This document shows, piece after piece, positions 95 through 20,758 of a DNA stretch of 50,000 nt. The first letter of the stretch is position 1, and each line of letters begins with the position of its first letter. The translations under genes and the position numbers were made by a program. The DNA is from a virus. Lineage: Duplodnaviria > Caudoviricetes. The stretch spans positions 1 to 50,000 of the IMG/VR virus record IMGVR_UViG_3300020045_012733. One strand, given 5' to 3'. The notes under the pieces are model-generated. The model had not been told where the DNA came from and searched no databases. It saw only the letters and a list, made by a program, of their open reading frames with translations.

Positions 95-162
95 AAAAAA
101 CCCTAAACGATTTCTTATGTCGGTTAGGGTTTTAAATTTCAATCATGGCTATTGCAAATGTA
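94..162 (-). ncRNA. Candidate small RNA (promoter, about 60 nt, intrinsic terminator)
   Basis: -7 box TACATTTG at 155-162, then hairpin ACCCTAA...TTAGGGT with a U-tract; no sizeable ORF. Confidence 0.45.
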
Positions 163-168
163 GAAATT

Positions 169-381: not shown

Positions 382-389
382 TTTTTTTA

Positions 390-919: not shown

Positions 920-1118
920 AATTTTGAATGGTTTCTTTTATTTTTTTATACTCGTTTATTTTGTCTTTAATTTCATCGTTTTGCTCCAACTCTTGCAACG
1001 CTTCAATTATTCCAAAAATATGCAATACGCTTAATCTAATAGCGTGTTTTCTTGTAATCATTCGACCACTTAACCAAAATGTATTGAAAATATCTAATGC
1101 TTTTTCTTGAATGTCCAT
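906..1118 (-). CDS. Hypothetical phage protein
   Basis: 70-aa ORF abutting the upstream gene. Confidence 0.75.
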   Translation of the reverse strand: MDIQEKALDIFNTFWLSGRMITRKHAIRLSVLHIFGIIEALQELEQNDEIKDKINEYKKIKETIQNFDKK

Positions 1119-2621
1119 TTATTTAAGTTTTTCTGATAATTCATTTTTAAACACTTCAACTATTTCATCAATAGTAATTAATCCAATTTCAAAAGCATTA
1201 TTAATATCATCAACTGATAAATCTTCATCTTCTTTTCTATCGTAATACAAAAGGTCTGAAACTAAATCTTTAACATTATCAATAATCATTAGTTTTGTTG
1301 CAGTTTCTTCTGTTGAAAACTCTTTATTATCATTTTTAGGTTCAAAACTAATTGTACTCTCTAAATCTTCTTTTGCTTCTTTGTCAAAGTCTGAATGCAT
1401 TTCTGCTCCTTCTTCTTTTACTGCAATTCCGTTTCCTAAATCTCTAACAAAACAGTTTTCTGGAATATCAACAACTTCTGCATTTTCAATTTCTTTAACT
1501 GATATTTTAACATCATTTAAATCATTTTCAACAACATCTAAATCATTAACATTTTCATCATTTACTTCAACTTCTTTTGGTTCTGCTTTGTTCCAATCTT
1601 CAATTTCTTTTTTAAAGTATTCAACTTTATCATTAAATTCTAAATCCGTTAAGTTATTCAATTCATCGAATGTTATTTTAACTAATATAACATCTGTATC
1701 AGTTGCGTAAATCCAACTTTTTAAGGCATCGTTTCCAAATAAACCTATTAATTCAATTGCTTTTTTTCTAAAGTAGAATTTAGCACATTTTAATTCAATT
1801 GCATAATCTTCAATAGAAAGTTCCCCAAGTGCTTTTTCTCCTTTGTATTTATAATCGTAATCAAACAACTCGCTCATTCTTTCATTAGTCAGTTTTGCAA
1901 CTTCTAAAGCTCTATTTGATTCTTGTAAATCTTTTTCAGTTGTTAAAGTTCTAATTAAAGTATCGAAATCCTCTGATTTTTCATCAACCATTGATCTATA
2001 AACTAATTCATAATCTTGTAAATCAATTGTTTTATCGGCTATTGAATTATCGTAAACTGATAAAATAGCATTAAATTGCTTTTCGTTTTCTTCAATATCT
2101 GAAAACTCTTTTGTTGAATCAATTATGCTTTGTAAATCAGTAGCAACTACATCAACTATTTTTTGAAGTTTTTCTTTTCGTTCGTTTTCTTTGTTTTCCT
2201 TTTCTAATCTTTCGTTTTCACGTCTTTTATCCTCGCTTTCTAAACGATTTGTAATTTTAGTTTCAATTGGTTCAACTATCAAAGTTAACTCATCTTTGAC
2301 TACTTTACTGCTTTTAGATGCTTGAGCTAAAACCGAACTATTATGTTTTGTGATTTTATCAAGTGCTATTCTCGGTTCTTTATGAATTTGTCTTAATTCT
2401 TTTAAACGAGTTTCTTCTTTTGTGGTTAACTTTTCCTTTGCAATAAGCTCATCAATTTCTTTTGAATGCTTTTTTACTAATGCGGTCAAATTCTTTTTAA
2501 CGTTTGCCTTTGTGAATGAAATCAAAACTCCTTCACTTTCTTTTAAAACCTCGTTAATTGGTTTCTGTTGTAATGCAATTTCTTTTGTTGCAAATCCCTC
2601 AATTTTTAATAATTCTGCCAT
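1119..2621 (-). CDS. Coiled-coil acidic phage protein (DUF1351-like N-terminus, tentative)
   Basis: 500 aa, E/K-rich heptads. Confidence 0.6.
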   Translation of the reverse strand: MAELLKIEGFATKEIALQQKPINEVLKESEGVLISFTKANVKKNLTALVKKHSKEIDELIAKEKLTTKEETRLKELRQIHKEPRIALDKITKHNSSVLAQASKSSKVVKDELTLIVEPIETKITNRLESEDKRRENERLEKENKENERKEKLQKIVDVVATDLQSIIDSTKEFSDIEENEKQFNAILSVYDNSIADKTIDLQDYELVYRSMVDEKSEDFDTLIRTLTTEKDLQESNRALEVAKLTNERMSELFDYDYKYKGEKALGELSIEDYAIELKCAKFYFRKKAIELIGLFGNDALKSWIYATDTDVILVKITFDELNNLTDLEFNDKVEYFKKEIEDWNKAEPKEVEVNDENVNDLDVVENDLNDVKISVKEIENAEVVDIPENCFVRDLGNGIAVKEEGAEMHSDFDKEAKEDLESTISFEPKNDNKEFSTEETATKLMIIDNVKDLVSDLLYYDRKEDEDLSVDDINNAFEIGLITIDEIVEVFKNELSEKLK

Positions 2622-2637
2622 AATTTCTAATTTGTTT

Positions 2638-2916
2638 TTAATGAATGTATCTTTTTGTTTTTGTGAATCTTATTTGTTTTTCTTTTTCGATGCAACTTGC
2701 TATAGCTTTTATTGTATTTATTAAAATTTCAATTATTTTCTTTTGCCTGTCTATTTTGTTTTCAAAAATAGTACTATTAATTATTGAAATCTGAATTGAT
2801 GAAGTTGAAGTAATAAGGATTAATTTTTGTTTTAGAAAAGAAATATATTTTCTTTTTTGTCTTAATATTTTTGGCTTTTTATTCTTATGAATCGAATAAT
2901 AATTTACTTTTCCCAT
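2638..2916 (-). CDS. Hypothetical basic protein
   Basis: 92-aa ORF overlapping the upstream gene. Confidence 0.55.
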   Translation of the reverse strand: MGKVNYYSIHKNKKPKILRQKRKYISFLKQKLILITSTSSIQISIINSTIFENKIDRQKKIIEILINTIKAIASCIEKEKQIRFTKTKRYIH

Positions 2917-3206
2917 TCTGGTAGTTGTTCAAGTGTTAAAAAATTTAGTTTTGAATCTCTAATGTGCCAAGTAACATGATGTACTATTGTTTGAATGTTT
3001 TTGTTTATTATGTCTGCTTTGTAAATTTCTTGATTGAAATTTCTAATTTGTGTAAATTGATTAAAATCGTACCAATGACAACCACTACTGCCTATTTTCT
3101 CTGGAATTAAAGATAGTTTTTCTGCTCTATTTCTAACTTTTTTATGACTTATTCCTAAAATAGTGGCAATATCATTAACGTTGTATCTTTTGGTATTTCC
3201 TTTCAT
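2904..3206 (-). CDS. DNA-binding HTH protein (excisionase/MerR-like)
   Basis: YNVNDIATILGISHKKVRNRA. Confidence 0.6.
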   Translation of the reverse strand: MKGNTKRYNVNDIATILGISHKKVRNRAEKLSLIPEKIGSSGCHWYDFNQFTQIRNFNQEIYKADIINKNIQTIVHHVTWHIRDSKLNFLTLEQLPEWEK

Positions 3207-3210
3207 TTTA

Positions 3211-3462
3211 CTACAAATTTGGTTTATAATTTTTTCTAATAACCGTATGTACTTTATTGGATAAATCTTGAAAATAAGTAGAACTTTTTACTTATGGAAT
3301 ATCGATTAAAGCGTTGTTAACTTCTTCACAACTATTTGTTAGTAAATCTTTGTAAGTAATAGCTTCTTTTGATGTTGGTTGTAACTCATCCAAAACTTCT
3401 AAAGTTAAGTTTGACAATACAACTAACAAATGGCATAACTCGGATTTTCTTTTTGGGTTCAT
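3211..3462 (-). pseudogene. Hypothetical gene interrupted by an in-frame TAA at 3292-3294
   Basis: The frame continues VKSSTYFQDLSNKVHTVIRKNYKPNL to TAG at 3211, 4 nt before the next ATG at 3206. Confidence 0.55.
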
Positions 3463-3761
3463 TTTAAATGATGTTTTATACAATCTTGTTTGTTTTCAAA
3501 TATTAAATCTTGACCTTTCAATTTTAAGTCGATTTTAAGGACTTTTGCAATTCTTACGGCTTGACTTCTGTCTTTTTGTATTATCATAAATCCTGCGCAT
3601 TGTTTTCGCTCTTTTAGAGTGCCTTTTGTAGTTTTATGACAAACGAAACTATCACTTTCTAATATTTCAGTCATTCGCTCCGAACCTAACCAACCTTTTA
3701 AACTATCCTTACGAAAAGGACAATCTTTACAAGGTGTTTGAATTATTGGCAATTTGCTCAT
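3459..3761 (-). CDS. Cys-rich phage protein (DUF6283-like); probable start 3761
   Basis: PCKDCPFRKD...FVCHKT...QCAG motifs. Confidence 0.65.
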   Translation of the reverse strand: MSKLPIIQTPCKDCPFRKDSLKGWLGSERMTEILESDSFVCHKTTKGTLKERKQCAGFMIIQKDRSQAVRIAKVLKIDLKLKGQDLIFENKQDCIKHHLK

Positions 3762-4230
3762 TGATGAAATTTTGTAAATCTGGTTCTTTGTATTTTTTAA
3801 CTTCTTCAATCCATTCTGAACTACAATGAATATCGTCATGTTGCAATCCATTTCCTAACCAACTTCTACTACGTTTTACTTTTTCAATTGTGTATGGAAT
3901 TGGTATTTTAATTTCTTGTAATACTTCTGTTTTTACTTTTCTGTATTTATCGTTTTTACGAATGAATTTTAGTTTAGGTAAAATGTAGAAATATTCTTTT
4001 TCAATAATTAAAGTGTTTGTTTTTGTTTTTATTTTAGTTTTTACTTTTGATTGAATTGGATTAATTCCTTTTACCAAATCTTCAATTAAACTTGAAACTT
4101 TTAAACCTTTTTCTAAAAGCCAATTATAATAATTTTTATCTGTTTGAATTATATATTGTAATTCTTTGCCTTGATATTTTCCAAACGTTAAAATATCATT
4201 AGGAAAATTAATTGTTTTATTGATACTCAT
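3727..4230 (-). CDS. Protein with N-terminal FGKY domain (DUF3820/exonuclease X C-terminal-like)
   Basis: LTFGKYQGKELQYI...YYNWLLE. Confidence 0.6.
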   Translation of the reverse strand: MSINKTINFPNDILTFGKYQGKELQYIIQTDKNYYNWLLEKGLKVSSLIEDLVKGINPIQSKVKTKIKTKTNTLIIEKEYFYILPKLKFIRKNDKYRKVKTEVLQEIKIPIPYTIEKVKRSRSWLGNGLQHDDIHCSSEWIEEVKKYKEPDLQNFINEQIANNSNTL

Positions 4231-8746: not shown

Positions 8747-9280
8747 TTAAAATAAACTTTGGTTATCTTTATTTTGAATCCGTTCTAAAATCCAATTGTT
8801 ATCGTATTTCTCTTTTATCAAAGCAAATCTTAAAATACATAAACAATCTGCATTCCATAAATTTACTTGTGTTTGTGGGAACTCCTCTTGTGCGTAATTT
8901 TTGTAAATGTTTTTTCGTTCTGTCGAACTCATTCCTCTTGTTTTAAATCCTAATTGACTTTGCCACGTTTGAGAATAAACATCAATATAACGAAAACCAT
9001 AAAAAACTATTAAAGCAATTATCTCACTATGATTTTGAAGTAGCTTTTGAATTCTAAATTGTTTTCCTTTATTTTCTTCATCGGAATCACTCATAAACAT
9101 TTGAACTTTTTCAATGAAAACTAAAACATCATCGTTATTTTCTCTTACATAATCAAAATAGGTTTTTAAATCCCTTAAATCCTTTGGCATTCGAATAACG
9201 TGTTCTAATCTGTCTTTTTTCCAAATTGCAATACCTCCGTTCGCTCCTGGATCAATTGATATGTAAGTTGTAGTTTTCAT
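8747..9280 (-). CDS. RuvC-like Holliday junction resolvase
   Basis: ISIDPGANGGIA, VFIEKV, NADCLCI acidic catalytic pattern. Confidence 0.8.
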   Translation of the reverse strand: MKTTTYISIDPGANGGIAIWKKDRLEHVIRMPKDLRDLKTYFDYVRENNDDVLVFIEKVQMFMSDSDEENKGKQFRIQKLLQNHSEIIALIVFYGFRYIDVYSQTWQSQLGFKTRGMSSTERKNIYKNYAQEEFPQTQVNLWNADCLCILRFALIKEKYDNNWILERIQNKDNQSLF

Positions 9281-9281
9281 T

Positions 9282-11492
9282 TTAAAATAGTGTTAATGTT
9301 GCGTTTTTTTCTGAAACAAAATCTTTATGATTTTTTGAATTTAAAGCGAAATAACTTTCTTTAAGTTCAATTGATATTGATTTTCTATTCATTTTAATTG
9401 CACAACAACCCTCCGAACCAATGCCTCCAAATGGACTTAAAACTGTTTCTCCCTCGTTTGAATATAAATGTAAAATTCTTTCTATTGTATCTAACTGAAG
9501 CGGTGCAATGTGTTTTTCATCATTTCCATCACGTCCAGAACGATACTGCAAAGTTCTTGAATAATCAATATCATACCAAACTGGCGAAGCGTATTTTTGC
9601 CATAAATCAACAGGTAAATAATCTAATTTACTACTATCAATATCTTGATGCGTTATTGGAGTTTCATTTTCTCCCTCGTTTCTAAAAAATAAAATATAAT
9701 CTGGAATACCAACCCTTGACATAATACTATCTTTTTTGATAGTTTTATGAAGTAAACCTAATGCTTTTGTTCGTTGCATTTCTGTAACAGGATTTTTCCA
9801 TATTGTAGTTCTTGAATGATAAATAAATCCATTTTCTTCAAACCAATCAATTAACATTCCGCTGAAATCTCTTAATCCAATATATCCCTCTTTACCTTTT
9901 TGAATTGGTAAATCCATGCAATGAATAGCGCACATTCTACCACTTTTTAAAACTCTTTTTAATTCTGGAATAAGGAATTTAAAATGTTGCTCAAATTGTT
10001 TGTAGTCGCTTACATTTCCCATATCTTCCTCTTTATCTGAATAAACATAAAGCTCCGCAAATGGTGGAGAAAAAACTACAATATCTGCACAATTATCTGG
10101 CAACTTTTTTGTTTCTTGAACGCAATCTCCATTTATTAAATGATATTTTTCTGTTTTAATTTCTTTGTTCATAATTTTTACTTTTGATTTTGCTGTTTTA
10201 TAATTTGTTTCTGCTGAATATAAAGCCATTTCTTTGATTCTTTCAAAGTGTTGTTTTTCTTTTTCTAAAATAGTTTGTCTTACATTTGTTTGGCTTTCTG
10301 GAATAAGAATATGAACTACTACTTTGTTTTTTTGACCGAATCTATAACAACGTCTAACCGCTTGATAAAATGCTTCAAATTTAAAATCGTAACTCATAAA
10401 AACCATTTGACTACATTGCTGATAATTCATACCAAATGATGCAATTGATGTTTTTGTAATTAGTGTTTTAAATTCTTTGTTTGCAAATCCATTTAGATAC
10501 TTTGCTTTATATTCTGGTTTATCAGAACCTTGAACGTTAATTGAATCTGGAAGTAATTTTGCTAATGTATCAGTTTCTTGATTTTTTAATCCCCAAACAA
10601 TCCATTGATTATCATTTGAATTAACAAGTTCTAATGTTTTTTTAATACGTAAATCAAAACTTCTATTCAAATCTTTGTGTAATTCTGTTGCTGAAACTGC
10701 TACATCTCCAAATAGTGATTGACTTGTATTTTCAACTGGTATAATGTGTTCAACATATTCTATTTCTGGTAAATTGTAACCATCTGAATTAAATCCTAAA
10801 GTTGCAGGATTATCAATAGCAATACTCCAACTTGATACATATTTCCAGAACGCATCCTTTGCGTGTTTTCTTAATCTCCATTTTGAAGTTTCTCCTCCAT
10901 CATGAACAAAGAACATTGCTAACATTTCTAAATAACTCATTCCTCCTAAAAATTCAGAATGCTGTCCTAATTCCATATGGTCGTTTGGCGATGGTGTAGC
11001 TGTGCAACATAATTTATAAGGAGTGTTTTTAAATAAATCTAAAATCATTGATGAAATTTTGCCATCACGCCCTTTTAAAATAGAGCTTTCATCTAAAACA
11101 ACTCCAGAATATTTAGAAATATCAATGTTTTTTAATTGATCATAATTATTAATTTGATTTTCATTATTATCAGTTGCAAACCAATCTATTTTAATTCCAA
11201 ATTTTTTTCCCTCTTTTATTGTTTGTTCACAAATAGCTAATGGAGCTAACAATAATACTGGTTTTTTTGTTTTTGCTTTCACTTGCTTTGACCATTCTAA
11301 TTGACAAAATGTCTTACCAAGACCACAATCAAAAAATAATGCGAATTTTCCTTTTTGCAATGCTACTTTTACTCCAAATTTCTGAAAGTCTTTTAACTCT
11401 TTATTTAGTTTGTTTTCTGAAATTTCAAATCCACTTTCTATAAATGTTTTTCTTTTTGTTTCTAAAAATGATTCATAATCTAAATTAGCCAT
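9282..11492 (-). CDS. SF2 (SNF2-like) helicase fused to an N4-C/N6-A DNA methyltransferase
   Basis: DCGLGKT, LDESS, TAT, QAVRRCYRFGQ; then GDC, VFSPPF and LSPFGGIGS (beta-class order). Confidence 0.9.
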   Translation of the reverse strand: MANLDYESFLETKRKTFIESGFEISENKLNKELKDFQKFGVKVALQKGKFALFFDCGLGKTFCQLEWSKQVKAKTKKPVLLLAPLAICEQTIKEGKKFGIKIDWFATDNNENQINNYDQLKNIDISKYSGVVLDESSILKGRDGKISSMILDLFKNTPYKLCCTATPSPNDHMELGQHSEFLGGMSYLEMLAMFFVHDGGETSKWRLRKHAKDAFWKYVSSWSIAIDNPATLGFNSDGYNLPEIEYVEHIIPVENTSQSLFGDVAVSATELHKDLNRSFDLRIKKTLELVNSNDNQWIVWGLKNQETDTLAKLLPDSINVQGSDKPEYKAKYLNGFANKEFKTLITKTSIASFGMNYQQCSQMVFMSYDFKFEAFYQAVRRCYRFGQKNKVVVHILIPESQTNVRQTILEKEKQHFERIKEMALYSAETNYKTAKSKVKIMNKEIKTEKYHLINGDCVQETKKLPDNCADIVVFSPPFAELYVYSDKEEDMGNVSDYKQFEQHFKFLIPELKRVLKSGRMCAIHCMDLPIQKGKEGYIGLRDFSGMLIDWFEENGFIYHSRTTIWKNPVTEMQRTKALGLLHKTIKKDSIMSRVGIPDYILFFRNEGENETPITHQDIDSSKLDYLPVDLWQKYASPVWYDIDYSRTLQYRSGRDGNDEKHIAPLQLDTIERILHLYSNEGETVLSPFGGIGSEGCCAIKMNRKSISIELKESYFALNSKNHKDFVSEKNATLTLF

Positions 11493-11506
11493 AATGTTTT
11501 TTTGTT

Positions 11507-12421
11507 TTATTGTATTTGTTTTAAAAATTCTCGAATGTCTTTTGTTTGTTCAATCAATAAATCGAAATACTTTTTAATGGTTAAATTGTTTTCAATTCTT
11601 TGAGCTTCTAATTTCAATCCATCAGTTAATACTTTTTTCTCGAAAGAATCAATCATTTTCTTTTTTTCGAGTTTAGATATGTGTTTTGAAATTAAAAGTC
11701 TATTGTATGCTTTATTTGCGTTTTCTTCTTTGAATGGTAGTTTTTGAATTAAATTATTTTCAATTAAAATATTCAAATGTACTTCAAGTTCAAAGTTTGG
11801 TTCTGTTTTATTTTTTTTGTATGCATCAAAAGTATGATAAATTTCTTGAATAATAATATTTGTGTTTTCTTTTTGCTTTTCAATTGGAATTTGAATTTCA
11901 GTTTTTGGAATTGCTAATCTTACTTTGCTCCAAACTTCCGAAGTTTTTTTAACGTAAGCATTTAAAACTCTTGTGTAAAATTCATAGCTAAACTCTTGAT
12001 AGTGGTTTTTGTCTGGATGGTTGTTTTTGTCTTTAGGTAAAAACTCATCAAGTTCTCCAACTGATAAAAGTTCAAACGCAAGTACTATTGAATTAAAACT
12101 TAAATTTGAATAGTAACGTGTTATTGCTTTCATAAATCTTGCACAAACGTACTTTTTATCGTTTTCATCCGCATACCATTTTTTAATTCCCAAATCTCTA
12201 CAAATCAAAGGTACAATTACTGAAATTTGATTGATAATAAAATCATCTTTTAAATCCTTAATTATTGGATTTGTTGAAGCAATAGTAACCAAACTATCAA
12301 TATTTGATAATTTACTTTTAACCTCTGGAACTTGTAACATTAATTGTCTGTTACGGATTAATTTATTTTCCGAAAGTTCAAATAATTGTAAACTTTTATT
12401 TGTAGTATTTTCTGGCACCAT
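11507..12421 (-). CDS. Hypothetical replication-region protein
   Basis: 304 aa; position next to the helicase gene. Confidence 0.6.
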   Translation of the reverse strand: MVPENTTNKSLQLFELSENKLIRNRQLMLQVPEVKSKLSNIDSLVTIASTNPIIKDLKDDFIINQISVIVPLICRDLGIKKWYADENDKKYVCARFMKAITRYYSNLSFNSIVLAFELLSVGELDEFLPKDKNNHPDKNHYQEFSYEFYTRVLNAYVKKTSEVWSKVRLAIPKTEIQIPIEKQKENTNIIIQEIYHTFDAYKKNKTEPNFELEVHLNILIENNLIQKLPFKEENANKAYNRLLISKHISKLEKKKMIDSFEKKVLTDGLKLEAQRIENNLTIKKYFDLLIEQTKDIREFLKQIQ

Positions 12422-12425
12422 AAAA

Positions 12426-12881
12426 TTACATATTTAGATAATCTAACATTGATTGAGTTGAAATAGTTTCTTTTGGTAAATTATCAATCATTTTTAATTT
12501 TTCTTTTTCTGCATCGGAACGCATGAAATTTCGAGCTGTGGCAATCCATCCTTTTGCAGTTCTTTTTTCGTTTGTTTTTGTCAAACTCCAATCTTTAACA
12601 GCATTAAAATAATATGAAATATCAACTCCCATTTGCTCAAATTGTAAAAATTCCTTCTCGAAAATTACCCAGTTTGAAACGTTTGATTTTTCAAAAGTAG
12701 TTTTTATTTCTGAACTTGTTTCAATGCTTCCAAATAAAGTGCCTTGAATTGGCTTCTTTTTCTTTGAATTACGATTATAAACTTGAATTGATACCTTTAC
12801 CATTGTTTGTAATTTTTTCAACTCATCAATCGTTAAATCAACTATTGAATCATTACTTAAATCTATTGTTACTTTTTTCAT
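12426..12881 (-). CDS. Hypothetical, replication-initiator C-terminal-like
   Basis: YYFNAVKDWS...GWIATARNFMRSD. Confidence 0.5.
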   Translation of the reverse strand: MKKVTIDLSNDSIVDLTIDELKKLQTMVKVSIQVYNRNSKKKKPIQGTLFGSIETSSEIKTTFEKSNVSNWVIFEKEFLQFEQMGVDISYYFNAVKDWSLTKTNEKRTAKGWIATARNFMRSDAEKEKLKMIDNLPKETISTQSMLDYLNM

Positions 12882-12884
12882 TTT

Positions 12885-13685
12885 TTAAATTGGTAAATTC
12901 ATTTTTTGCAATATTGCTGTCGATACGTGAGTATAAATTTCTGTTGTTTTGCTACTTGAATGTCCTAAATGCTTTTGAATAATTCTTAAATCTGTACCTG
13001 CTTCAAGTAATGCAGTTGCGTTTGAATGTCGTAATAAATGTATATGATATTCTTTACCAATATATTTTTTAACTATTTCATTACAACTCTTATGAGAATA
13101 TTGAAGTGCATTATTTTGACCATTAAAAACATATTCTTTAGGTCTATACTCTCTATGATAATCACGTAATAATTCAAGTACTTTCTCACTTAATGGAACT
13201 ATTCTATCTTTTCTTCCTTTAGATTGTCTAATTGTAATAATCATACGCTTACTATCAATATCGGATTGCTTTAAATTACAAACCTCACTTACTCTCATTC
13301 CTGTACTATAAACTAAAGTCAATAATGCTTTGTGCTTTTTATTCTCAATCTTTTCAAGTTGACTTAATAAAAATTCCTTTTCAATTATTTTAGGTAGTTT
13401 CTTTTCTGCTCTTGGACGTTCTATTTTATTTAAATGAATGTCTTTTTTATCTAAAATATATTTTGCAAATAATTTTAAACAACCAATAAATTGATTTTGT
13501 TGTGAAACAGATGTAAACTTTTTATGTTCTAAATAATCAATAATTGATTTTGTTGTAATTGAATACGGATCTTTACAATTTGTTTCTTTAAAATATTGAT
13601 AAAGCGTTTGTTTGTAAACTTTAATTGTATTTATTGAGTAATTTTTATATCTCAATTTATTTTCAAAAATTTCAAGAATCTTCAT
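12885..13685 (-). CDS. Tyrosine recombinase (integron-integrase-like, lacking the IntI-specific insertion)
   Basis: N-terminal SAM-like domain (YSINTIKVY), YSTGMRVSE, SKGRKDR, HLLRHSNAT, LGHSSSKTTEIY; adjacent to the cassette array. Confidence 0.92.
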   Translation of the reverse strand: MKILEIFENKLRYKNYSINTIKVYKQTLYQYFKETNCKDPYSITTKSIIDYLEHKKFTSVSQQNQFIGCLKLFAKYILDKKDIHLNKIERPRAEKKLPKIIEKEFLLSQLEKIENKKHKALLTLVYSTGMRVSEVCNLKQSDIDSKRMIITIRQSKGRKDRIVPLSEKVLELLRDYHREYRPKEYVFNGQNNALQYSHKSCNEIVKKYIGKEYHIHLLRHSNATALLEAGTDLRIIQKHLGHSSSKTTEIYTHVSTAILQKMNLPI

Positions 13686-13699
13686 GGCTTATATGTTTA

Positions 13700-13750
13700 T
13701 TTTATTAGTGTTAAGGTAGTGTGTTGGATATATAATAGTTATGTGTAATG
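13700..13750 (+). other. attI-like site, crossover G|TTATGTG at 13738
   Basis: First GTTA core, with no hairpin to its left, 53 bp from the integrase start; pairs with tacacataac at 14171-14180. Confidence 0.7.
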
Positions 13751-14143
13751 TTACAATTCCGTTTTTACAGAAACTTTTAAAACACACCACTTGTCATTTT
13801 TTTCTGAAAATTCATCAAATAAATCGTGCCCACCAATTCTTAAATAAGTATTATAGTCCGTTCCGTAAGTATAAGATGAATAATTGTAACTACTTGTTTC
13901 GTATTCTGCTGTAATTTCTCCAAACAATTTACCAAGCCATTTTTCAAGTATTTCTTCTTCTGTCTTTTTTTTATCAGATAAAAAATAACTAACTGAAACT
14001 TCACTTTCAAATAAGTCAAAAATCGCTCTAAACTTTTTCACAAGGTCAACGGTTTTACTTTCATCAATAAGTTTGATGGTTTTAAAATCTTCGCTCCAAT
14101 CAATTTTTATGAAGCCACTAAATGTAAATTCTTTTATTTCCAT
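13751..14143 (-). CDS. Cassette 1 hypothetical protein (likely start MEIKEF)
   Basis: ORF filling the 562-bp cassette. Confidence 0.8.
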   Translation of the reverse strand: MEIKEFTFSGFIKIDWSEDFKTIKLIDESKTVDLVKKFRAIFDLFESEVSVSYFLSDKKKTEEEILEKWLGKLFGEITAEYETSSYNYSSYTYGTDYNTYLRIGGHDLFDEFSEKNDKWCVLKVSVKTEL

Positions 14144-14176
14144 AAGGAATTTTGTTTTAAAAATCCACACTACACA

Positions 14177-14303
14177 TAACAGTAGTTTGTAGCAATGGCT
14201 TTATTAGTGTTTAATTTAATGTTTTGGCTTCTCTGTTATTATAGTTTTTAAACCGAAACTACTCGCTTACTTGCACGCCACTGCAACAAGCTACAAAACG
14301 TTA
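14177..14303 (+). repeat. attC-like site 1 (127 bp)
   Basis: TAACAGTAGTTTGTAGCAATGGC...GCCACTGCAACAAGCTACAAAACGTTA. Confidence 0.88.
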
Positions 14304-14312
14304 TAACCAATA

Positions 14313-14546
14313 CTACGGGATTAGAGTGGCTCTCCAACTTTGTGCTAACTTCTTATTTATTTCTTCTTTTGAAGTGTATAAATCGCAAGTATTGGTAATT
14401 ACTTTTTCATAATCTCGCTTTACACCATTATTAGCGTGGACTATTTTTTTGCCGTTTTCTTCTATAATATTAAAAACGTGTGTTTCTGCTCCCCATCCTA
14501 ATCCTTGATAGTATAGCACATCTCCTTTTTTTAAATCTTGTGTCAT
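14313..14546 (-). CDS. Cassette 2 hypothetical protein
   Basis: 77-aa ORF in the 385-bp cassette. Confidence 0.8.
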   Translation of the reverse strand: MTQDLKKGDVLYYQGLGWGAETHVFNIIEENGKKIVHANNGVKRDYEKVITNTCDLYTSKEEINKKLAQSWRATLIP

Positions 14547-14561
14547 AATAAGTACTGGTTA

Positions 14562-14688
14562 TAACAGTGGTTTTGCTCAATGGCTGTTTCAGGCAAAATT
14601 TCAGCACTGTTTTGTGTTTGTAAAATTTGTTTTTAATTCAATAATTTAGGCTTGCTTTTCAGCCACTAAGCAAAGCCACGGGACGTTA
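14562..14688 (+). repeat. attC-like site 2 (127 bp)
   Basis: TAACAGTGGTTTTGCTCAATGGCTG...CAGCCACTAAGCAAAGCCACGGGACGTTA. Confidence 0.88.
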
Positions 14689-14692
14689 ACCG

Positions 14693-14866
14693 CTATTTAA
14701 ACGGAACTCGGTGTATAACGAAATCCTTATACAAAATCGGAAACTTACACATCTTTAGTGAGTGATAAGGAAATTCTAAATCCTTACATAATTTTTTAAA
14801 ATTACCTCGCACAATTGGCGTGAGTGTGCAAGGTTGTATAGCAACTATTATATTTTTTCTTTGCAT
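14693..14866 (-). CDS. Cassette 3 ORF B, 57 aa (MQRKNIIVAI...HRVPFK)
   Basis: Hand-translated; below the ORF-track cutoff; starts 1 nt after the ORF A stop. Confidence 0.7.
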   Translation of the reverse strand: MQRKNIIVAIQPCTLTPIVRGNFKKLCKDLEFPYHSLKMCKFPILYKDFVIHRVPFK

Positions 14867-14867
14867 A

Positions 14868-15029
14868 TTAACTTATTATTTTAAATCCCCATCTTTTACA
14901 CATACATTTTACAACGTATTTTCTTTTATCTCCATCAATTTCTTCTCCTGTTTTAGCGTCAATAATCCAATAGAAACCACCCTCCCATAATTCAATTTTA
15001 ACTTCTCTTTTTGTTGTGTTTGCTTTCAT
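14868..15029 (-). CDS. Cassette 3 ORF A, 53 aa (MKANTTKREV...GFKIIS)
   Basis: Hand-translated; preceded by its own promoter. Confidence 0.7.
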   Translation of the reverse strand: MKANTTKREVKIELWEGGFYWIIDAKTGEEIDGDKRKYVVKCMCKRWGFKIIS

Positions 15030-15056
15030 AATTTCTATTTGTTTATTATTATGATG

Positions 15057-15087
15057 TAAATATACGACTTATTTTTATATACACAAA
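15057..15087 (-). promoter_or_regulatory. Cassette-internal Bacteroidota-type promoter
   Basis: TTTG-N19-TATATTTA, followed by CATCATA as in the duplicated phage promoter. Confidence 0.6.
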
Positions 15088-15140
15088 CTTTTTTGTAATT
15101 ATTTTTAAAATATTTATAATTCAGTAAAATAAACAGCGGT

Positions 15141-15214
15141 TAACAAGTGTTTTGCTCAATTGTGCCGAAAGTAGTTTGCGGTTAGGCACAACTGAAGCAA
15201 AGCACCATACGTTA
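15141..15214 (+). repeat. attC-like site 3 (short, 74 bp)
   Basis: TAACAAGTGTTTTGCTCAATTGTGCC...GGCACAACTGAAGCAAAGCACCATACGTTA. Confidence 0.85.
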
Positions 15215-15235
15215 TAGCCAATGCGGGAAGAAGTG

Positions 15236-15604
15236 CTAATCAGGCACCTCTTCGTTCAAATTATGACATTGTTCGCTTTGTAACAATTCTGCACTACTAT
15301 AATCAATGTATATTTTAGTATGAGGATTGTGATTTTTAAAAAGGTATCTAATTGCAGGCTCTACAGCTTTATCAAAGTCGCTTATATCTTGTTCAAAAGG
15401 ATTTTGAATACCTAATTGATTTGGCTGATTTTCTGGGTCAAATATTGTTTGGATTAGAGTTGTTATTTCCTCAGCAATAGAGGATATATCTTCTCCTTCT
15501 ATCGCTTGAAAAGAATCTCCTAACTCTCCACAAGAACCCCTGCCGTAACACGTTATAGTGTTATTGTTTAATAATTCGATAATTTGTTTTTTAATCTGTT
15601 CCAT
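15236..15604 (-). CDS. Cassette 4 hypothetical protein
   Basis: 122-aa ORF. Confidence 0.8.
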   Translation of the reverse strand: MEQIKKQIIELLNNNTITCYGRGSCGELGDSFQAIEGEDISSIAEEITTLIQTIFDPENQPNQLGIQNPFEQDISDFDKAVEPAIRYLFKNHNPHTKIYIDYSSAELLQSEQCHNLNEEVPD

Positions 15605-15654
15605 TTTTTATGTTTATTTAAAGTTAATATTTGTAGTTAAAAAGGCACTGGCTA

Positions 15655-15774
15655 TAACAGGTGTTTGGCAAAAAAGCCCTTCAGTATTTCTATTTGACAT
15701 TTGTACTAATTTTTAAGTTTTGTAATTCTATTGAACATTTGGTTAGGGCTTCTTCGCCAAGCACCCGACCGTTA
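15655..15774 (+). repeat. attC-like site 4 (120 bp)
   Basis: TAACAGGTGTTTGGCAAAAAAGCCCT...AGGGCTTCTTCGCCAAGCACCCGACCGTTA. Confidence 0.88.
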
Positions 15775-16050
15775 TAAGCAAGATTGCACAACTTCACGTC
15801 CAAATTTACCCGCTTGAATTATCAAACTTTTATCTGTGAATTGTTTTTTCTTATCACTTATAGTTCTTCCGAAATATCTTCCTTTAAAAATAAACTCAAA
15901 AGTTGTTATTCTTGGTTCGTCATAAAAAGTAACTACACCTTCTTTGAATACATACTTTCCTTTTCTATGTTCATATTCAGTTCCTTTTTTTATTACATCA
16001 CAATTACCATAAGGTTTTCCAATTGCAAAATCTGAATCAAATTTTTTCAT
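15772..16050 (-). CDS. Cassette 5 hypothetical protein
   Basis: 92 aa; its stop codon is the TTA of the GTTA core. Confidence 0.8.
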   Translation of the reverse strand: MKKFDSDFAIGKPYGNCDVIKKGTEYEHRKGKYVFKEGVVTFYDEPRITTFEFIFKGRYFGRTISDKKKQFTDKSLIIQAGKFGREVVQSCL

Positions 16051-16065
16051 AATAAATCCTGCTTA

Positions 16066-16187
16066 TAACAGTTGTTTGGCACTATTGCCGTTTAGTTTTT
16101 CAGCGGAAAATACTCTGCTGATATTAATTTTAGTTTTCATAAGTTCGTTCACGTTATCGGCAACAGATGCCAAGCAACATACCGTTA
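16066..16187 (+). repeat. attC-like site 5 (122 bp)
   Basis: TAACAGTTGTTTGGCACTATTGCCG...CGGCAACAGATGCCAAGCAACATACCGTTA. Confidence 0.88.
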
Positions 16188-16196
16188 TGGTAAATG

Positions 16197-16712
16197 CTAA
16201 AAAGACGTTTCCGATAAAAGTTTATCTAAATTATCTAAAGCTTTTTTGTATTTCTCTTTGGCTTTATTTAAAGCTTCAATCTTAAATTCTTTTTTTCTTT
16301 TATTAGATATTTCTAATAATTCGTTATAAAAATCAGGTTCTGATTCCCACAACTTTAATATATGTTTTATTTTTTCATCAGTAAAGCTTTCTTCTTTTTC
16401 ATTATTAAACCAATCTAAAGCACATTCTTTTTTTGTTAAATAAAAACTGCTTAGTGGTCTATGAAGTTGTGAGTGTCCTTTTGTAAAATGAGATAAACAA
16501 TTTCCAAATGAAACTTTTGCATCTACATTTCCACTTTTCTCCATTAACTCTAAACTAAAATGAATAGCTTGCAGTTGATTTTTAATATCTCCTTCATCAT
16601 AAAAAGGTGTTACGGCAAAAGTTTCGTCACTATACAAATCGCTTTCAATTACTAAAATTATTTTTCTACCTCTTTTTTCAGCTCTTGTTACTTTTACATT
16701 TATTGGTTTCAT
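16197..16712 (-). CDS. Cassette 6 hypothetical protein (likely start MKPINV)
   Basis: ORF filling the 679-bp cassette. Confidence 0.8.
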   Translation of the reverse strand: MKPINVKVTRAEKRGRKIILVIESDLYSDETFAVTPFYDEGDIKNQLQAIHFSLELMEKSGNVDAKVSFGNCLSHFTKGHSQLHRPLSSFYLTKKECALDWFNNEKEESFTDEKIKHILKLWESEPDFYNELLEISNKRKKEFKIEALNKAKEKYKKALDNLDKLLSETSF

Positions 16713-16739
16713 ATTTTTTTGTTTTAAAAGCACTTACCA

Positions 16740-16866
16740 TAACACTGCATTGTAGCAATTGTGGTTTTAGGCTTAATTAATAATTTATTTTGTACTTGTT
16801 TTGGTTAGTTTTTAATATAAACATTGTGTCAGTCAAACCACAACTGACTACAATGCTTTAACGTTA
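16740..16866 (+). repeat. attC-like site 6 (127 bp)
   Basis: TAACACTGCATTGTAGCAATTGTGGTTT...AAACCACAACTGACTACAATGCTTTAACGTTA. Confidence 0.88.
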
Positions 16867-16875
16867 GCAGTAACC

Positions 16876-17307
16876 TTACGCAGACACACCAAGTTTTTGT
16901 AGTTTAGAAATTAACATTTTTCTTTTCTCTTGTTTTTCACAAAGAAGAATGCCTAATATTTGAAGTGTTGCATTTTCAGACAATGAATTATTTAAAGTAT
17001 GTTCATTATCATTTTTCTTTTTCGTTTCTGAACACCCAAAAGAAAACAATGGCATTGATAACGAGTGTAGCATTCTTTTATGAATATCCTCATAATTATT
17101 TCTAACAATGCTGCCATCTTCATCAAAAGAATTTTTTTGAGAATCCTCATTTTTTTTGCCAATATCTTCAATTTTTAATTCAAATGTTGACTTTATTTCA
17201 CCATTGGCAACTAACATAGCTATTCTATCAATATCTATAATTTCTTTGTCAAGTGCTTGAATATCCTTGTAGATAATTGTTGCTTTTTCTAATTGTTTAA
17301 ATTCCAT
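16876..17307 (-). CDS. Cassette 7 hypothetical protein
   Basis: 143-aa ORF. Confidence 0.8.
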   Translation of the reverse strand: MEFKQLEKATIIYKDIQALDKEIIDIDRIAMLVANGEIKSTFELKIEDIGKKNEDSQKNSFDEDGSIVRNNYEDIHKRMLHSLSMPLFSFGCSETKKKNDNEHTLNNSLSENATLQILGILLCEKQEKRKMLISKLQKLGVSA

Positions 17308-17349
17308 TTTTAATATTTATTTTGTACGACTGACCAAAAAGGCTACTGC

Positions 17350-17475
17350 TAACATCGGTTTTGCAATAGTTGGGCAGACGTGGTTAATTGAACTTTTTTA
17401 CTTCTATTTAGCTTTGTGCAAGGGTTGAACATTTCGTTTCCAAATTCCCAACCATCGCAAAGCCGTTTTCCGTTA
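17350..17475 (+). repeat. attC-like site 7 (126 bp)
   Basis: TAACATCGGTTTTGCAATAGTTGGG...CCCAACCATCGCAAAGCCGTTTTCCGTTA. Confidence 0.88.
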
Positions 17476-17484
17476 GACGATAGC

Positions 17485-17709
17485 TTACTCGGGAATCTTA
17501 AGCCACTTCACAATTTCTCTATCAATAGAATAATCTTCGTTATCGTACCATTCTTTAAAATGACTTCCATCCATAGTTCCTTCATAAAGTCGAGCGACCA
17601 TTTTTCTGCCAATATCATCAACAACTAATACTTCATCGCTTCTTTTTCCATCCCAAACGCCAGTTTCATAAGTTATTGGCGTTGCATTTTCGGTGTAATT
17701 CCATTCCAT
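17485..17709 (-). CDS. Cassette 8 protein (DUF551-like)
   Basis: MEW...SDEVLV...VARL...W...IVKWLKIPE. Confidence 0.75.
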   Translation of the reverse strand: MEWNYTENATPITYETGVWDGKRSDEVLVVDDIGRKMVARLYEGTMDGSHFKEWYDNEDYSIDREIVKWLKIPE

Positions 17710-17737
17710 AATTTTTTACTTTTTAAAAGCCATCGTC

Positions 17738-17868
17738 TAACAAGTGTTTTCTGCTATGGCTTGGTTATGGTTTTTCCTTCGGAAAAACCGCTGTTGACTT
17801 TAATCTTGTTTTTGTGTTTTGGTGGCTTGGTGCTTATTTCCGCCACAGACAGAAAGCACCAAACGTTA
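17738..17868 (+). repeat. attC-like site 8 (131 bp)
   Basis: TAACAAGTGTTTTCTGCTATGGC...GCCACAGACAGAAAGCACCAAACGTTA. Confidence 0.88.
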
Positions 17869-17877
17869 TGTGCAAGG

Positions 17878-18150
17878 CTAACTGACCGCTTCGTAAGTAG
17901 CTTCAAATATTGACTTTTCGACAAGCCACCTTTCGCCATTAATGCCAACACAAACGTAATGCTTGCCAAATTCGCCTCTATGTTTTTGATTTTCCAAAGT
18001 AGCTATATATGGTACTAAATCAGGTTGTATTCCATATTTAGCATCTTCCATAGCTCCAAGCATACCGTCACGGTAAACAAAACCATCTTCATCACCTTTT
18101 TCAAATAATTTAGCCTTTACTGTGGCTGTCTTTCTGTACTCTTTAAACAT
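17878..18150 (-). CDS. Cassette 9 protein (widespread phage YRK..V.A...NGE.W...IFE.TYE family)
   Basis: EYRKTATVKA...GINGERWLVEKSIFEATYE. Confidence 0.7.
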   Translation of the reverse strand: MFKEYRKTATVKAKLFEKGDEDGFVYRDGMLGAMEDAKYGIQPDLVPYIATLENQKHRGEFGKHYVCVGINGERWLVEKSIFEATYEAVS

Positions 18151-18192
18151 CGTTTTCAAATTAAATTTAGTGCTGATAAACCGCCCAGCACA

Positions 18193-18318
18193 TAACAGCG
18201 GTTTGTAGCAAAAAGGGTTGACGTGCTACATTCGTCATTTGTGGTTCTAATCAGCAGTAGTGCAAGGTTGAAACTGTGTGCTTCTAAATCCCTTTCAGCT
18301 ACAAGCCGCAAAACGTTA
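18193..18318 (+). repeat. attC-like site 9 (126 bp)
   Basis: TAACAGCGGTTTGTAGCAAAAAGGG...CCCTTTCAGCTACAAGCCGCAAAACGTTA; the final TTA is the exonuclease stop codon. Confidence 0.88.
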
Positions 18319-19185
18319 ATCTATTTTTAAAAGTAGGCAAATTTCATCTTGTTTGTATTTAAATTGTTCTGCATTTTCTAAAAACAATTCATAATCATTA
18401 GAAGATAAATCCATAATTGCATCAAATATTCTTACTCTTTTTTCTAAAAATAATTTATCTGCAATTGGTACTTCAAATCTGATTGTATTTATTTCTTCAT
18501 ATCCGCTTTCTTTTAAAATAAATGGTAATTGTCCAGGACGTGCAAAAGCTACTTTATAACTTGATTCTGGTAAATTATCATTGTATTTTATAATTTCTTC
18601 AAGTGTTTTAAAATATGGCATAAATATAATTAATTCTGCATATTTAGTTCCAAAAATACAAGCATTACTTACTAATTGCCAATAAAATTTCTTACCATCT
18701 TTTGCTTTATCAATTAATTTTGATAATGCTTTTTTCATATCCGGATTGTCAATTTTCTTAACTCCTCCTTCTGGTAATTCCTCATATAAACCGCTTACTA
18801 ATTGACAAAATGCTTTTTTAGTCAAAGGACATTTAATGTCTGTAATAGCATCTAATACTAATTTTTTAAGAATTACTTTGTATTTTGAACCATCTGGAGT
18901 ACCTACCCAAACAGGATATTTTGGATGTTGTTTTGTATCGCTTGAATGAAACTTATAATCTTTTGGTAATTTCTTATGTGCAAAACTTTCAACTAATTTG
19001 CCCCATTCAGTTGCTAATACTTCAACTTCACTTTCTAAACTTTGAAGTAAACATTTTTCATATCTACATTCTTCTACATAAGTAAAAAATGGACTTCCTA
19101 TTGAGTTTGCAATTCTACCTTCTGAAACTAAAGATACAATTGAACTTGAATTAGCTGTTGATATTCTTATATTTGATAAAGCCAT
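18316..19185 (-). CDS. YqaJ/lambda-exonuclease-like recombination exonuclease
   Basis: EWGKLVE, GTPDG, DIKCP, FYWQ (PD-(D/E)xK pattern). Confidence 0.85.
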   Translation of the reverse strand: MALSNIRISTANSSSIVSLVSEGRIANSIGSPFFTYVEECRYEKCLLQSLESEVEVLATEWGKLVESFAHKKLPKDYKFHSSDTKQHPKYPVWVGTPDGSKYKVILKKLVLDAITDIKCPLTKKAFCQLVSGLYEELPEGGVKKIDNPDMKKALSKLIDKAKDGKKFYWQLVSNACIFGTKYAELIIFMPYFKTLEEIIKYNDNLPESSYKVAFARPGQLPFILKESGYEEINTIRFEVPIADKLFLEKRVRIFDAIMDLSSNDYELFLENAEQFKYKQDEICLLLKID

Positions 19186-19820
19186 TATTTTATTAGGTTT
19201 AGTTCGTTAATTATTTTTTGATAGTCTATTGATTCTTTTTCTTCAATAATTCTTTCGATGTGAAGTTGACTATCAAAATCTATTTTTGCCTTTTTTTCGC
19301 TATACAACTTTTTTAGTTCTTCTAACTTTTTTTCGTTTGATGTTTTAGGCTCTTTTGAAATAGTATCGTTTCTGTTTAAATCTGATCCAAATAGTTTTCC
19401 AAAACCATAACAAGCATTTTTTACTGCATTACTTTTTGCGTTTGGAAGTGCTGCCGAAACTGCATAATCTGTAAAATCTTTTGTTTTTACGTTTTCTGCT
19501 TTAATTTTTTCTGGTTCTTCTGCTCCAACTCCATCAAAATATAACCAATTTTTAGGCTCATCAAATTCTCTAAAATGAACTCTCATTGTTACTGCATTAG
19601 AATTAAAAATCTCTTTTGTATCTAAAACCTCATATCTAAAATTAAACTTGAAAATACTTCTTAAAAGAAATTCTACTTTATCAATTGGTAAGAATTTATA
19701 ATTTGCTATTTCAGAATGTTGTTTGATCCAACTTTGAGGAGGTTCTTCTTTTAAAAGTTCAAATAAATCTGCATTTGTTTTGATGCTTTCAATCTTTTTT
19801 AATAAATCTGATTCATTCAT
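19185..19820 (-). CDS. Single-strand annealing protein (Rad52/22-, Sak-like)
   Basis: DGVGAE...AKSNAVKNACYGFGKLFGSDLNR; paired with the exonuclease. Confidence 0.75.
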   Translation of the reverse strand: MNESDLLKKIESIKTNADLFELLKEEPPQSWIKQHSEIANYKFLPIDKVEFLLRSIFKFNFRYEVLDTKEIFNSNAVTMRVHFREFDEPKNWLYFDGVGAEEPEKIKAENVKTKDFTDYAVSAALPNAKSNAVKNACYGFGKLFGSDLNRNDTISKEPKTSNEKKLEELKKLYSEKKAKIDFDSQLHIERIIEEKESIDYQKIINELNLIK

Positions 19821-19827
19821 TTTAATT

Positions 19828-20142
19828 TTAAATTTTAGTTATTAAATCTGAAATTTCGCACTCTAAAATAATTCGAATGTTTTCTAACTTTTCAAATATC
19901 TTAACTTTTTGGTTTAAATACATTTTCCAAGTTACATTTATTTCATCTTTGTTTTCGGACATAAAAATAACATCGCAATGTTTGTTGAAATTCTTTGAAA
20001 ATCTACTACCCAATTGAGATAATACTTGTGATGAAGTTCCTATTTCATCTGCTACTGAAACTAAAGTTTTTTGTTTCTTTTCTGGATTCTTTTTGTTCCA
20101 CTTCTCAATAGCTTCTTTAATCGTTGTTTTAAATTGTTTCAT
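19828..20142 (-). CDS. HTH-like protein
   Basis: TLVSVADEIGTSSQVLSQL...ILECEISDL. Confidence 0.6.
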   Translation of the reverse strand: MKQFKTTIKEAIEKWNKKNPEKKQKTLVSVADEIGTSSQVLSQLGSRFSKNFNKHCDVIFMSENKDEINVTWKMYLNQKVKIFEKLENIRIILECEISDLITKI

Positions 20143-20297
20143 TTTTTCTTTGCGTTTTTTTTAACTTGATTGTAATACTCGTTTGTCGTTTCAGTTACGT
20201 TTCCTTTTTTATCCTCAACGTAACTCTTAAATCCGTTGTGTGTTTTAAATATAGTTCTACCATCTTTTAAAACTATTACTTGCTCTCTATTTGCCAT
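20139..20297 (-). CDS. Small hypothetical protein, 52 aa (MANREQVIVL...)
   Basis: Hand-translated; ATGA overlap with the next gene. Confidence 0.6.
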   Translation of the reverse strand: MANREQVIVLKDGRTIFKTHNGFKSYVEDKKGNVTETTNEYYNQVKKNAKKK

Positions 20298-20758
20298 TTT
20301 TAATTTATATTTTTATTATACAAAGGATTTTCTTTTCTAATTTCTTCACATTGTTTTTTAAAAGAATTTATGTCCGCTTCTGTGATTAAAGTATCACTTT
20401 TCAACATACACATATACGCTTTGTTTAAAAACTTTTCTTTTTCTGTTTTGAATACTTCTAATGCCATTTGTTTAGTTTTAAATAAATACTATAAATACCA
20501 CACAACAATAATAATGCAATAACTAAAATTGAAGCCATAACTGCTATTTGCTCCCAAATTGATAATTTTTCCATAACTAAATTATTTTTCTTAATACTCT
20601 TGTTTTTCCATCTGCTAAAAGAACATAGGCAAAGTTATCATTTAGCTTTTCGGTTTCTTGCTTTTTTTGCAATTTCTAAAGTCTTATTTGCGCTAATCTT
20701 TGCCTTTTTTTGTTCTTCAAATATTGTTAAATCTGGTTTTAACTTTTTGTCTTTACGA

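Follow-up and report, generated by a model that had tools for sequence, protein, structure and literature searches.

The window examined here is the whole 50-kb IMG/VR virus record IMGVR_UViG_3300020045_012733 (Caudoviricetes), and positions 13738 to 18318 within it hold an array of small genes and repeated hairpins beside a gene encoding a tyrosine recombinase. The best explanation of this region as a whole, in which we have good confidence, is a phage-borne integron-like cassette platform made up of a short Xer/XerA-like recombinase, a conserved attI site, reversed cassettes, and expression by read-through. Nine attC-like hairpin sites of 74 to 131 nt lie on the + strand to the right of the recombinase gene. 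They share a single plan: C-N6-TAAC-A leads into a 12-bp stem and an inner stem, a variable loop separates these from their returning halves, and about 5 unpaired nucleotides precede C-GTTA-N6-A. A first reading made from the sequence alone (hereafter, the sequence-only reading) had described these sites as running TAACA...CGTTA on the + strand, and all nine do so. Its assignment of all 10 cassette open reading frames (ORFs) to the minus strand was likewise borne out, as ten ATG-initiated ORFs of 53 to 171 amino acids, all on the minus strand, fill the spaces between the + strand sites and make up nine cassettes, one of which has two ORFs. The array contains ten GTTA boxes and nine TAAC boxes, and the extra GTTA is the one beside the recombinase.

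The hairpins were examined for pairing and for their relation to the neighboring cassettes. The paired structure of the sites accounted for 80.9% of cells compared with 67.1 ± 2.3% in shuffled controls (0 of 500 shuffles reached the observed value), the pairing dropped to 28–46% when the partner was slid, and 12 pairs showed compensatory changes. The paired site structure is thus not due to chance. At 8 of the 9 junctions, the 6 nt that follow one GTTA and the 6 nt that precede the TAAC of the next site are reverse complements (5 of 6 nt match at the ninth), whereas comparison with the flank of the same site gives only 0–2 matching positions. The site loops on the + strand are T-rich, as had been proposed (AT skew of −0.33 versus −0.17 for the window), but the accompanying idea of a purine-rich bottom strand did not hold, as the purine share of the loops on the + strand (0.40) hardly differs from that of the window (0.42). 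A covariance model built from the nine sites matched eight of the nine, with no other match in the window; site 9 (within 18186–18325) was not listed at default filters even though it had been used in building the model, and was recovered with an nhmmer profile (E 7.5e-17). An Rfam scan of the window at gathering thresholds gave no match, and a looser hairpin scanner was dropped as unspecific (391 matches on the + strand, 172 on the minus strand, and 142 in shuffles).

The same arrangement was found throughout a sample of 80 viral loci encoding recombinases 49–84% identical to that of the window. All 215 covariance-model matches in these loci (E ≤ 0.01) were on the strand opposite the recombinase gene. 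Refinement gave 230 sites, distributed over 63 of 81 sequences; 214 of the sites had at least 9 of the 12 stem pairs, and 213 of those 214 were situated on the start-codon side of the recombinase gene. Complementarity of at least 5 of 6 nt was present at 117 of 150 junctions between consecutive sites, versus 4 of 150 when the flank of the same site was used. For 117 clean cassettes, the longest ORF was on the recombinase strand in 108 cases, on the other strand in 6, and lacking in 3, with the median ORF occupying 82% of the segment. The sites are of the attC type, being imperfect palindromes with R and L boxes and a variable loop, and in the alignment the TAAC was retained in 136 of 136 and the GTT in 135 of 136. 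We conclude that the reversed layout is family-wide and not an artifact of one genome. Loci L029 and L055 each possess one atypical site downstream of the integrase.

Since junction complementarity is symmetric, it is insufficient alone to name the top strand. The + strand is the top strand of the array on the basis of the extra GTTA, the limits of shared cassettes, and the cleavage polarity of tyrosine recombinases. The extra GTTA (at 13738; the integrase start codon is at 13685, 53 nt away) has no hairpin body, whereas the opposite end of the array is a complete site. An orphan box of this kind was present in 49 of 58 viral loci, and in 33 of them it was located 52–78 nt from the start codon within the core A(T/C)ATAT(A)(A/G)TA/GTTA. 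The placement of an attI-like site next to the integrase by the sequence-only reading was therefore upheld, although the description of that integrase as divergent was correct only with respect to the top strand of the sites, as its gene is on the ORF strand. Shared cassettes identified the same boundary. A cassette that is internal in locus L014 is the first cassette at attI in locus L080 (93% identical), and the homology begins exactly at G/TTA, which is the orphan box in L080, spans the ORF and the next hairpin, and ends at the next GTTA. For the cultured Flavobacterium phages snusmum9-1 and snusmum6-1, the flanks are 99.7–99.8% identical and the limits of the block in which they differ are the attI-like G/TTA and an inner G/TTA. 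A strict search for shared cassettes that required both flanking sites returned 0 pairs, and whole-array BLAST was used instead, counting shared segments of at least 150 nt outside the sites at 70% identity or more. The 44 segments so obtained provided 176 endpoints, with 15 at GTTA, 0 at TAAC, and 161 elsewhere. The conserved core in the 33 loci, the L014/L080 pair, and the snusmum difference identify the attI beside the integrase as the point of cassette entry, as in integrons. By these boundaries, the mobile unit comprises TTA-x6, the antisense ORF, x6'-TAAC, the hairpin body, and G; with the unit running in that order, the hairpin lies upstream of its own gene. Cassettes 1 and 2 of L080 (array offsets 65–90 and 1075–1100) share the same ~20 nt after G/TTA, which may represent a duplicated or related cassette end.

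A classical geometry, in which the minus strand would be the top strand, each ORF would travel with its downstream site, cassettes would enter at the 18318 end, and the integrase would stand at the distal end, accounts well for the close approach of the stop codons to the TAAC box (median gap of 9 nt, with 17 stops inside the box), as in classical cassettes, and for the position of the extra unpaired bases, which on the sense strand are in the 5' arm, as described for classical top strands (PMC5027507). It does not account for the orphan box without a hairpin at the integrase end, with a distance and core conserved in 33 loci, or for the complete site at the far end; moreover, of the two sites next to an ORF, the shared blocks take in the one nearer the start codon and leave out the other, and their endpoints include GTTA boxes and no TAAC box. 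We regard this geometry as extremely improbable. The sequence-only reading had taken the + strand as the attC top strand, and the orphan GTTA, the complete far-end site, and the G/TTA cassette limits agree with it. Neither of the situations that it named as contrary to this view, recombination of the + strand or insertion of new cassettes at the 18315 end, was found: the minus strand is the one indicated by crossover placement taken with recombinase polarity, and the integrase end is where new cassettes are added.

Cleavage by tyrosine recombinases falls on the strand that has the binding arm 5' of the spacer, and a crossover at G/TTA on the + strand corresponds to a cut at TAA/C on the minus strand. 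From the placement of the crossover and this polarity, we infer that the minus strand is the recombined strand. In integrons, the cut is made within the 5'-AAC-3' triplet of the bottom strand (PMC5027507). The spacer from AAC to the L stem is 6 nt on the minus strand (C plus 5 nt, GTTTY) and 2 nt on the + strand (C plus 1 nt). Six nucleotides is a normal central region for tyrosine recombinases, and because this spacer is found only on the minus strand, that strand alone appears to offer a workable geometry. Pairing of the R box extends over 10 bp. In 178 of 214 sites, the ORF-sense strand is the more stable of the two when folded, the mean difference being 1.81 kcal/mol, and a stability difference of 2.12 kcal/mol has been reported for classical bottom strands (PMC5027507). 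The sites depart from the integron rule of extrahelical bases on the opposite arm (PMC5027507) in having 5 extra unpaired nucleotides, a bulge, on the AAC arm of the crossover-bearing strand. In the mechanism that we propose, the recombinase would resemble integron integrases in acting at the AAC triplet of sites folded from single-stranded DNA, and with AAC at the crossover on the minus strand the recombined ("bottom") strand would be the sense strand of the ORFs. The difference between the 6-nt and 2-nt spacers probably sets which strand is used, and attI, immediately before the integrase gene, would be the point of entry for new cassettes. The lagging-strand-template orientation is reported to favor attC folding and cassette excision (PMC13108822); we speculate that the recombined strand would be the lagging-strand template should replication of the phage run the same way as transcription.

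The recombinase contains the HxxR, GH, and Y catalytic motifs. Its best NCBIfam match was XerA_Arch (NF040815) with 192 bits against a cut-off of 220, and the XerC and XerD models gave 153–160 bits against cut-offs of 330–335; the integron-integrase model TIGR02249 gave 150 bits against a cut-off of 265, and only positions 2–178 and 252–313 were matched. On alignment with VchIntIA (IntI4; PDB 2a3v), residues 12–175 and 209–255 of the phage protein corresponded to residues 14–179 and 260–306, with 33 amino acids where VchIntIA has 80. The I2 insertion that defines IntI proteins is therefore absent, and the protein lacks the I2 helix domain by which an IntI would be recognized. It does not classify as a Xer/XerA resolvase either, as its scores are below the family cut-off and its gene is tied to an array of sites rather than to a single dif-type site. 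The recombinase is outside the IntI family, yet the anatomy of the system is integron-like in every feature tested. Integration of the CTX phage by XerCD (PMC7790495) offers a partial parallel in that a Xer-type enzyme without I2 acts on a duplex-mimicking hairpin and exchanges one strand; it differs in that the whole phage genome is integrated into dif by host enzymes, with no cassette array that has its own attI and recombinase.

A profile of the recombinase retrieved 80 loci in Bacteroidota genomes (genera including Flavobacterium, Epilithonimonas, Pseudopedobacter, Chitinophaga, and Cyclobacterium), mostly with identities of 40–48%; the source databases hold more than 7000 homologues, named XerD. 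Of the 110 matches of the site model in these loci, 109 shared the strand of the recombinase, and 108 of these were downstream of the gene. An orphan GTTR was found 95–121 nt past the recombinase in 16 of 22 bacterial loci, after a TATA(A/T)A..AG core that resembles the phage core. Of the 43 clean bacterial cassettes (from 53 site pairs in 12 loci), 40 had the ORF on the top strand of the site. Bacterial arrays follow the classical ORF-then-attC rule with a co-directional integrase, and the comparison with host arrays carrying the same repeats that the sequence-only reading had called for has in this way revealed the classical orientation. In the phage clade, by comparison, the polarity of sites and attI is kept and the recombinase gene and cargo are both flipped. 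A FastTree tree of 152 recombinases, in which 60 had the phage layout, 37 had the bacterial layout, and 55 without sites were left uncounted, required a single change of layout; as relatives share labels, the tree shows one clade and not a rate. The asymmetry of the sites relative to attI is equal in the two layouts, so the phage cassettes are not bacterial cassettes inserted by the wrong strand; the phage cassette ORF is turned relative to its own site. When 107 phage cassette proteins were compared with the 80 bacterial loci, no match was obtained except in L086, which itself has the phage layout. With both integrase and cargo flipped, the phage cassettes thus constitute a separate pool, and the dedicated pool of reverse cassettes that had been proposed is substantiated within this sample. 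Loci L160, L132, L092, L137, and other bacterial loci (10800–20400) have a recombinase of ~270 amino acids followed downstream by as many as 10 or more sites, these recombinases score 214–222 bits on NF040815 (cut-off 220), and L132, of bacterial layout, has one atypical site upstream.

We considered whether the array could be a passive piece of a host array (a CALIN, the name for an attC cluster lacking an integrase) that was picked up backwards and is neither maintained nor used by the phage. Phage CALINs have been described by Qi et al. 2023 (PMC9892861), the same site family is present in Bacteroidota chromosomes, and some cultured phages have arrays and no integrase, all of which would fit. 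Such an origin is nonetheless quite unlikely, as the phage layout goes with one integrase clade (60 loci, with one layout change in the tree), attI is conserved beside the phage integrase, the ORFs are flipped relative to the sites rather than the whole array relative to attI, no phage cassette protein matches the sampled bacterial arrays, and cassettes have been exchanged between phages. The cultured phages in question, vB_FspS_snusmum9-1 (L165, 2040–6431) and vB_FspS_snusmum6-1 (L166, 2040–7056), each carry 10 sites on one strand with the annotated coding sequences all on the other, and both arrays have an attI-like left boundary. Some of the small annotated coding sequences overlap hairpin sites and may be spurious. 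A relative of the recombinase was encoded in neither of the two whole records (0/2), and a host or co-infecting element may supply it in trans. The nearest isolated relatives by integrase, the Polaribacter phages Freya and Leef (32–35% identity), were set aside, as neither the model nor a box search detected such sites in them. The near-identical isolates Freya_1 to Freya_10 differ by up to ~4 kb in small ORFs directly upstream of a 35% identical integrase (1–4200 in locus L003, from Freya_10).

A further alternative treats the hairpins as regulatory or recombination hot-spot repeats (terminators, REP-like elements, or T4-type promoter-stem-loop cassettes) that allow homologous shuffling, with the recombinase being only a lysogeny integrase. 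The site bodies are 85–95% identical between different phages and could support homologous exchange, chimeric-looking sites occur, and the integrases of related flavophage isolates were read as a sign of a temperate lifestyle by Bartlau et al. (PMC8776804). In metagenome contigs from four runs, the sites were covered far more deeply than the ORF segments, which also suits this alternative, although these are mixed communities; the contigs were short and noisy, joints with sides of less than 30 nt were discarded, and each of 20 sequencing runs contained a small share of the words, at most 0.11. Homologous shuffling would not, however, be expected to place exchange limits on a 4-nt box rather than anywhere in a repeat of ~130 nt, or to keep variable 6-nt flanks complementary across each ORF. 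The sites track the recombinase in two different layouts, and no terminator-like sites were found on the sense strand of the array. We consider this alternative to be very doubtful. One 4-kb metagenome contig follows the window through the recombinase and attI as far as 13749 and departs from it thereafter, which is consistent with attI being a variable junction, although contigs from mixed communities provide weak evidence on this point.

Several observations count against the integron-like platform. The homology of 86% between L006 and L060 begins inside the body of the left-hand site, and the snusmum pair shares an ORF segment at 91% identity that is joined to different site bodies in the two phages. 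Junction complementarity is lacking in 33 of the 150 viral site pairs, for which missed sites are the likely cause. Frequent T.G wobble pairs occur in the L stem on the + strand, a classical strand mark that points the other way. The orientation of the ORFs in bacterial arrays is known from 12 loci only. I2 has been described as needed for cassette capture and as conferring single-strand recombination (PMC7790495), and since it is held to be necessary for that reaction, its absence leaves room for a double-strand or other mechanism. We offer more tentatively, as a proposal that falls a little short of an even chance, that I2-less Xer-like recombinases run a second integron system across Bacteroidota and their phages, arising either by independent invention or from a pre-I2 ancestor. 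In the phages, the cargo would have been flipped such that the recombinogenic strand is the sense (non-template) strand, folding and turnover would be coupled to transcription and replication, and a phage-only counter-defence pool would be maintained.

Expression of the cassettes was assessed from terminator and promoter signals. None of five terminator-like sites was on the sense strand of the array (0/5), and sigma-70-like sites in the array were at the chance level (39 versus 38.7 expected). The Bacteroidota −7 motif TAnnTTTG was not enriched in the 160 nt upstream of 107 ORFs (8 sense versus 20 antisense occurrences in a crude scan). Whereas integron cassettes have promoterless ORFs on the top strand that are read from Pc, 108 of the 117 viral cassettes and 10 of the 10 window ORFs have the gene on the other strand, and there was no sign of a Pc promoter at attI. 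As sense-strand terminators are lacking and promoter signals are at chance or not enriched, read-through from upstream genes is the most economical account, and to judge from these signals the cassettes are probably expressed in this manner. The same architecture with each cassette having its own promoter in or just after the upstream hairpin, and without read-through, is unlikely; the hairpin body upstream of each ORF could carry a promoter and cassette 3 has a 105-nt leader, whereas the median distance from box to start codon among the viral cassettes is 27 nt and the two promoter scans also speak against it. According to the read-through model, cassettes that look promoterless would be transcribed from the upstream phage recombination genes, across the array, and into the integrase gene, with the newest cassette being last in the transcript. 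The identification of those upstream genes by the sequence-only reading as SSAP and exonuclease stands as a lead only, the evidence being a Rad52 Pfam match with an E value of 0.005, below cut-off, and atlas leads to YqaJ-like and Rad52-like clusters.

The 107 phage cassette ORFs include seven DNA methyltransferases (four N6_N4, two C5, and one D12), and the strand of the methyltransferase Pfam matches is that of the integrase. Among the rest, a few have matches to YopX, HD, GNAT, or dATP/dGTP pyrophosphohydrolase families, and most have no family; the ten window cassette ORFs yielded no confident function against Pfam and PHROGs. The orphan DNA methyltransferases in the cargo suggest a library of phage accessory or counter-defence genes.

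The system can be placed relative to those already described. Like the classical integrons (class 1 and the Vibrio superintegron), it has a tyrosine recombinase beside attI, cassettes separated by imperfect-palindrome AAC...GTT sites, crossover at G/TT, an inverse core complementary to the start of its own cassette, a variable loop, and one strand that folds better. It differs from them in having a phage recombinase without I2 and ORFs on the recombined strand, with the site before the gene. The inverted integron-integrase group found in Treponema and others (Cury et al. 2016, PMC4889954) shares its layout with the bacterial relatives only; in the phages, the integrase gene and the site top strand run in opposite directions, a feature shared with class 1, and the flipped element is the cargo, and the inverted layout was found neither in the window nor among the 215 viral matches. 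The published members of that group have true IntI proteins. The phage CALINs of Qi et al. (PMC9892861) likewise have attC-type sites, present in both virulent and temperate phages, one of them a Polaribacter phage, along with some methyltransferase cassettes, and several of their sites were recombined by IntI1. No associated recombinase, attI, or ORF-orientation rule is reported in the available portion of that study, and it is by this description only that they are set apart. Full-text literature searches, with supplements outside their scope, revealed no description of the recombinase-array system or of reversed cassettes. We conclude that the system is a variant of the integron kind and not a member of the IntI family.

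The association of integron-type arrays with I2-less recombinases makes the origin of integrons testable. Orientation of cargo relative to attC is treated as fixed by Pc-driven expression (PMC5027507), and a phage clade with the opposite rule and bacterial relatives with the classical rule provide a natural pair for what sets orientation. If the interpretation is correct, phages own a gene-capture device with methyltransferase cargo, beyond carrying fragments of bacterial integrons. IntegronFinder 2.0 is reported to find one complete integron in Bacteroidetes (PMC9024848), and if surveys of this type see almost no integrons there, then a large set of arrays is currently unannotated. Cultured Flavobacterium phages carry such arrays, so ordinary phage-host experiments are possible.

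Table 1. Features of the recombinase gene, attI-like site, cassette array, and adjacent upstream gene in the window
Feature	Positions	Strand	Details
Tyrosine recombinase, 266 aa, XerA/Xer-like	12885-13685	-	Pfam Phage_integrase + SAM_4
attI-like site, core ATATAATAG/TTA, crossover between 13738 and 13739	13686-13741	+	Orphan GTTA; flank complementary to site 1 flank
Cassette 1 (newest by position)	13739-14300	+	Antisense ORF 13751-14143 (130 aa); site 14177-14303
Cassette 2	14301-14685	+	Antisense ORF 14313-14546 (77 aa); site 14562-14688
Cassette 3	14686-15211	+	Antisense ORFs 14693-14866 (57 aa) and 14868-15029 (53 aa); short site 15141-15214
Cassette 4	15212-15771	+	Antisense ORF 15236-15604 (122 aa); site 15655-15774
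Cassette 5	15772-16184	+	Antisense ORF 15772-16050 (92 aa), stop codon inside box; site 16066-16187
Cassette 6	16185-16863	+	Antisense ORF 16197-16712 (171 aa); site 16740-16866
Cassette 7	16864-17472	+	Antisense ORF 16876-17307 (143 aa); site 17350-17475
Cassette 8	17473-17865	+	Antisense ORF 17485-17709 (74 aa); site 17738-17868
Cassette 9 (oldest by position)	17866-18315	+	Antisense ORF 17878-18150 (90 aa); site 18193-18318
Upstream phage gene, 289 aa (YqaJ-like as lead only)	18316-19185	-	ORF call, atlas lead

The window has a G+C content of ~28%, carries almost every ORF on the minus strand, and encodes an endolysin-like protein, a Holliday-junction resolvase, and a helicase-methyltransferase as phage markers; its source is a phage of Bacteroidota. 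PDB sequence searches with the 289-aa and 211-aa proteins encoded upstream of the array gave no significant match. The stop codon of the 289-aa gene overlaps the last GTTA (18315–18318). This last GTTA is the distal half of the original attI, and with the stop codon within the box, the original attI overlapped the end of that gene. Downstream of the recombinase and on the same strand are genes for the Holliday-junction resolvase (8747–9280) and for a 736-aa helicase fused to a DNA methyltransferase domain (9282–11492). Within the array, the two small ORFs of cassette 3, which could be a two-gene module such as a toxin-antitoxin pair, are 1 nt apart, its leader is unusually long, and its site, at 74 nt, is the shortest. 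The ORF of cassette 4 has a DNA relative in locus L012 that is 82% identical.

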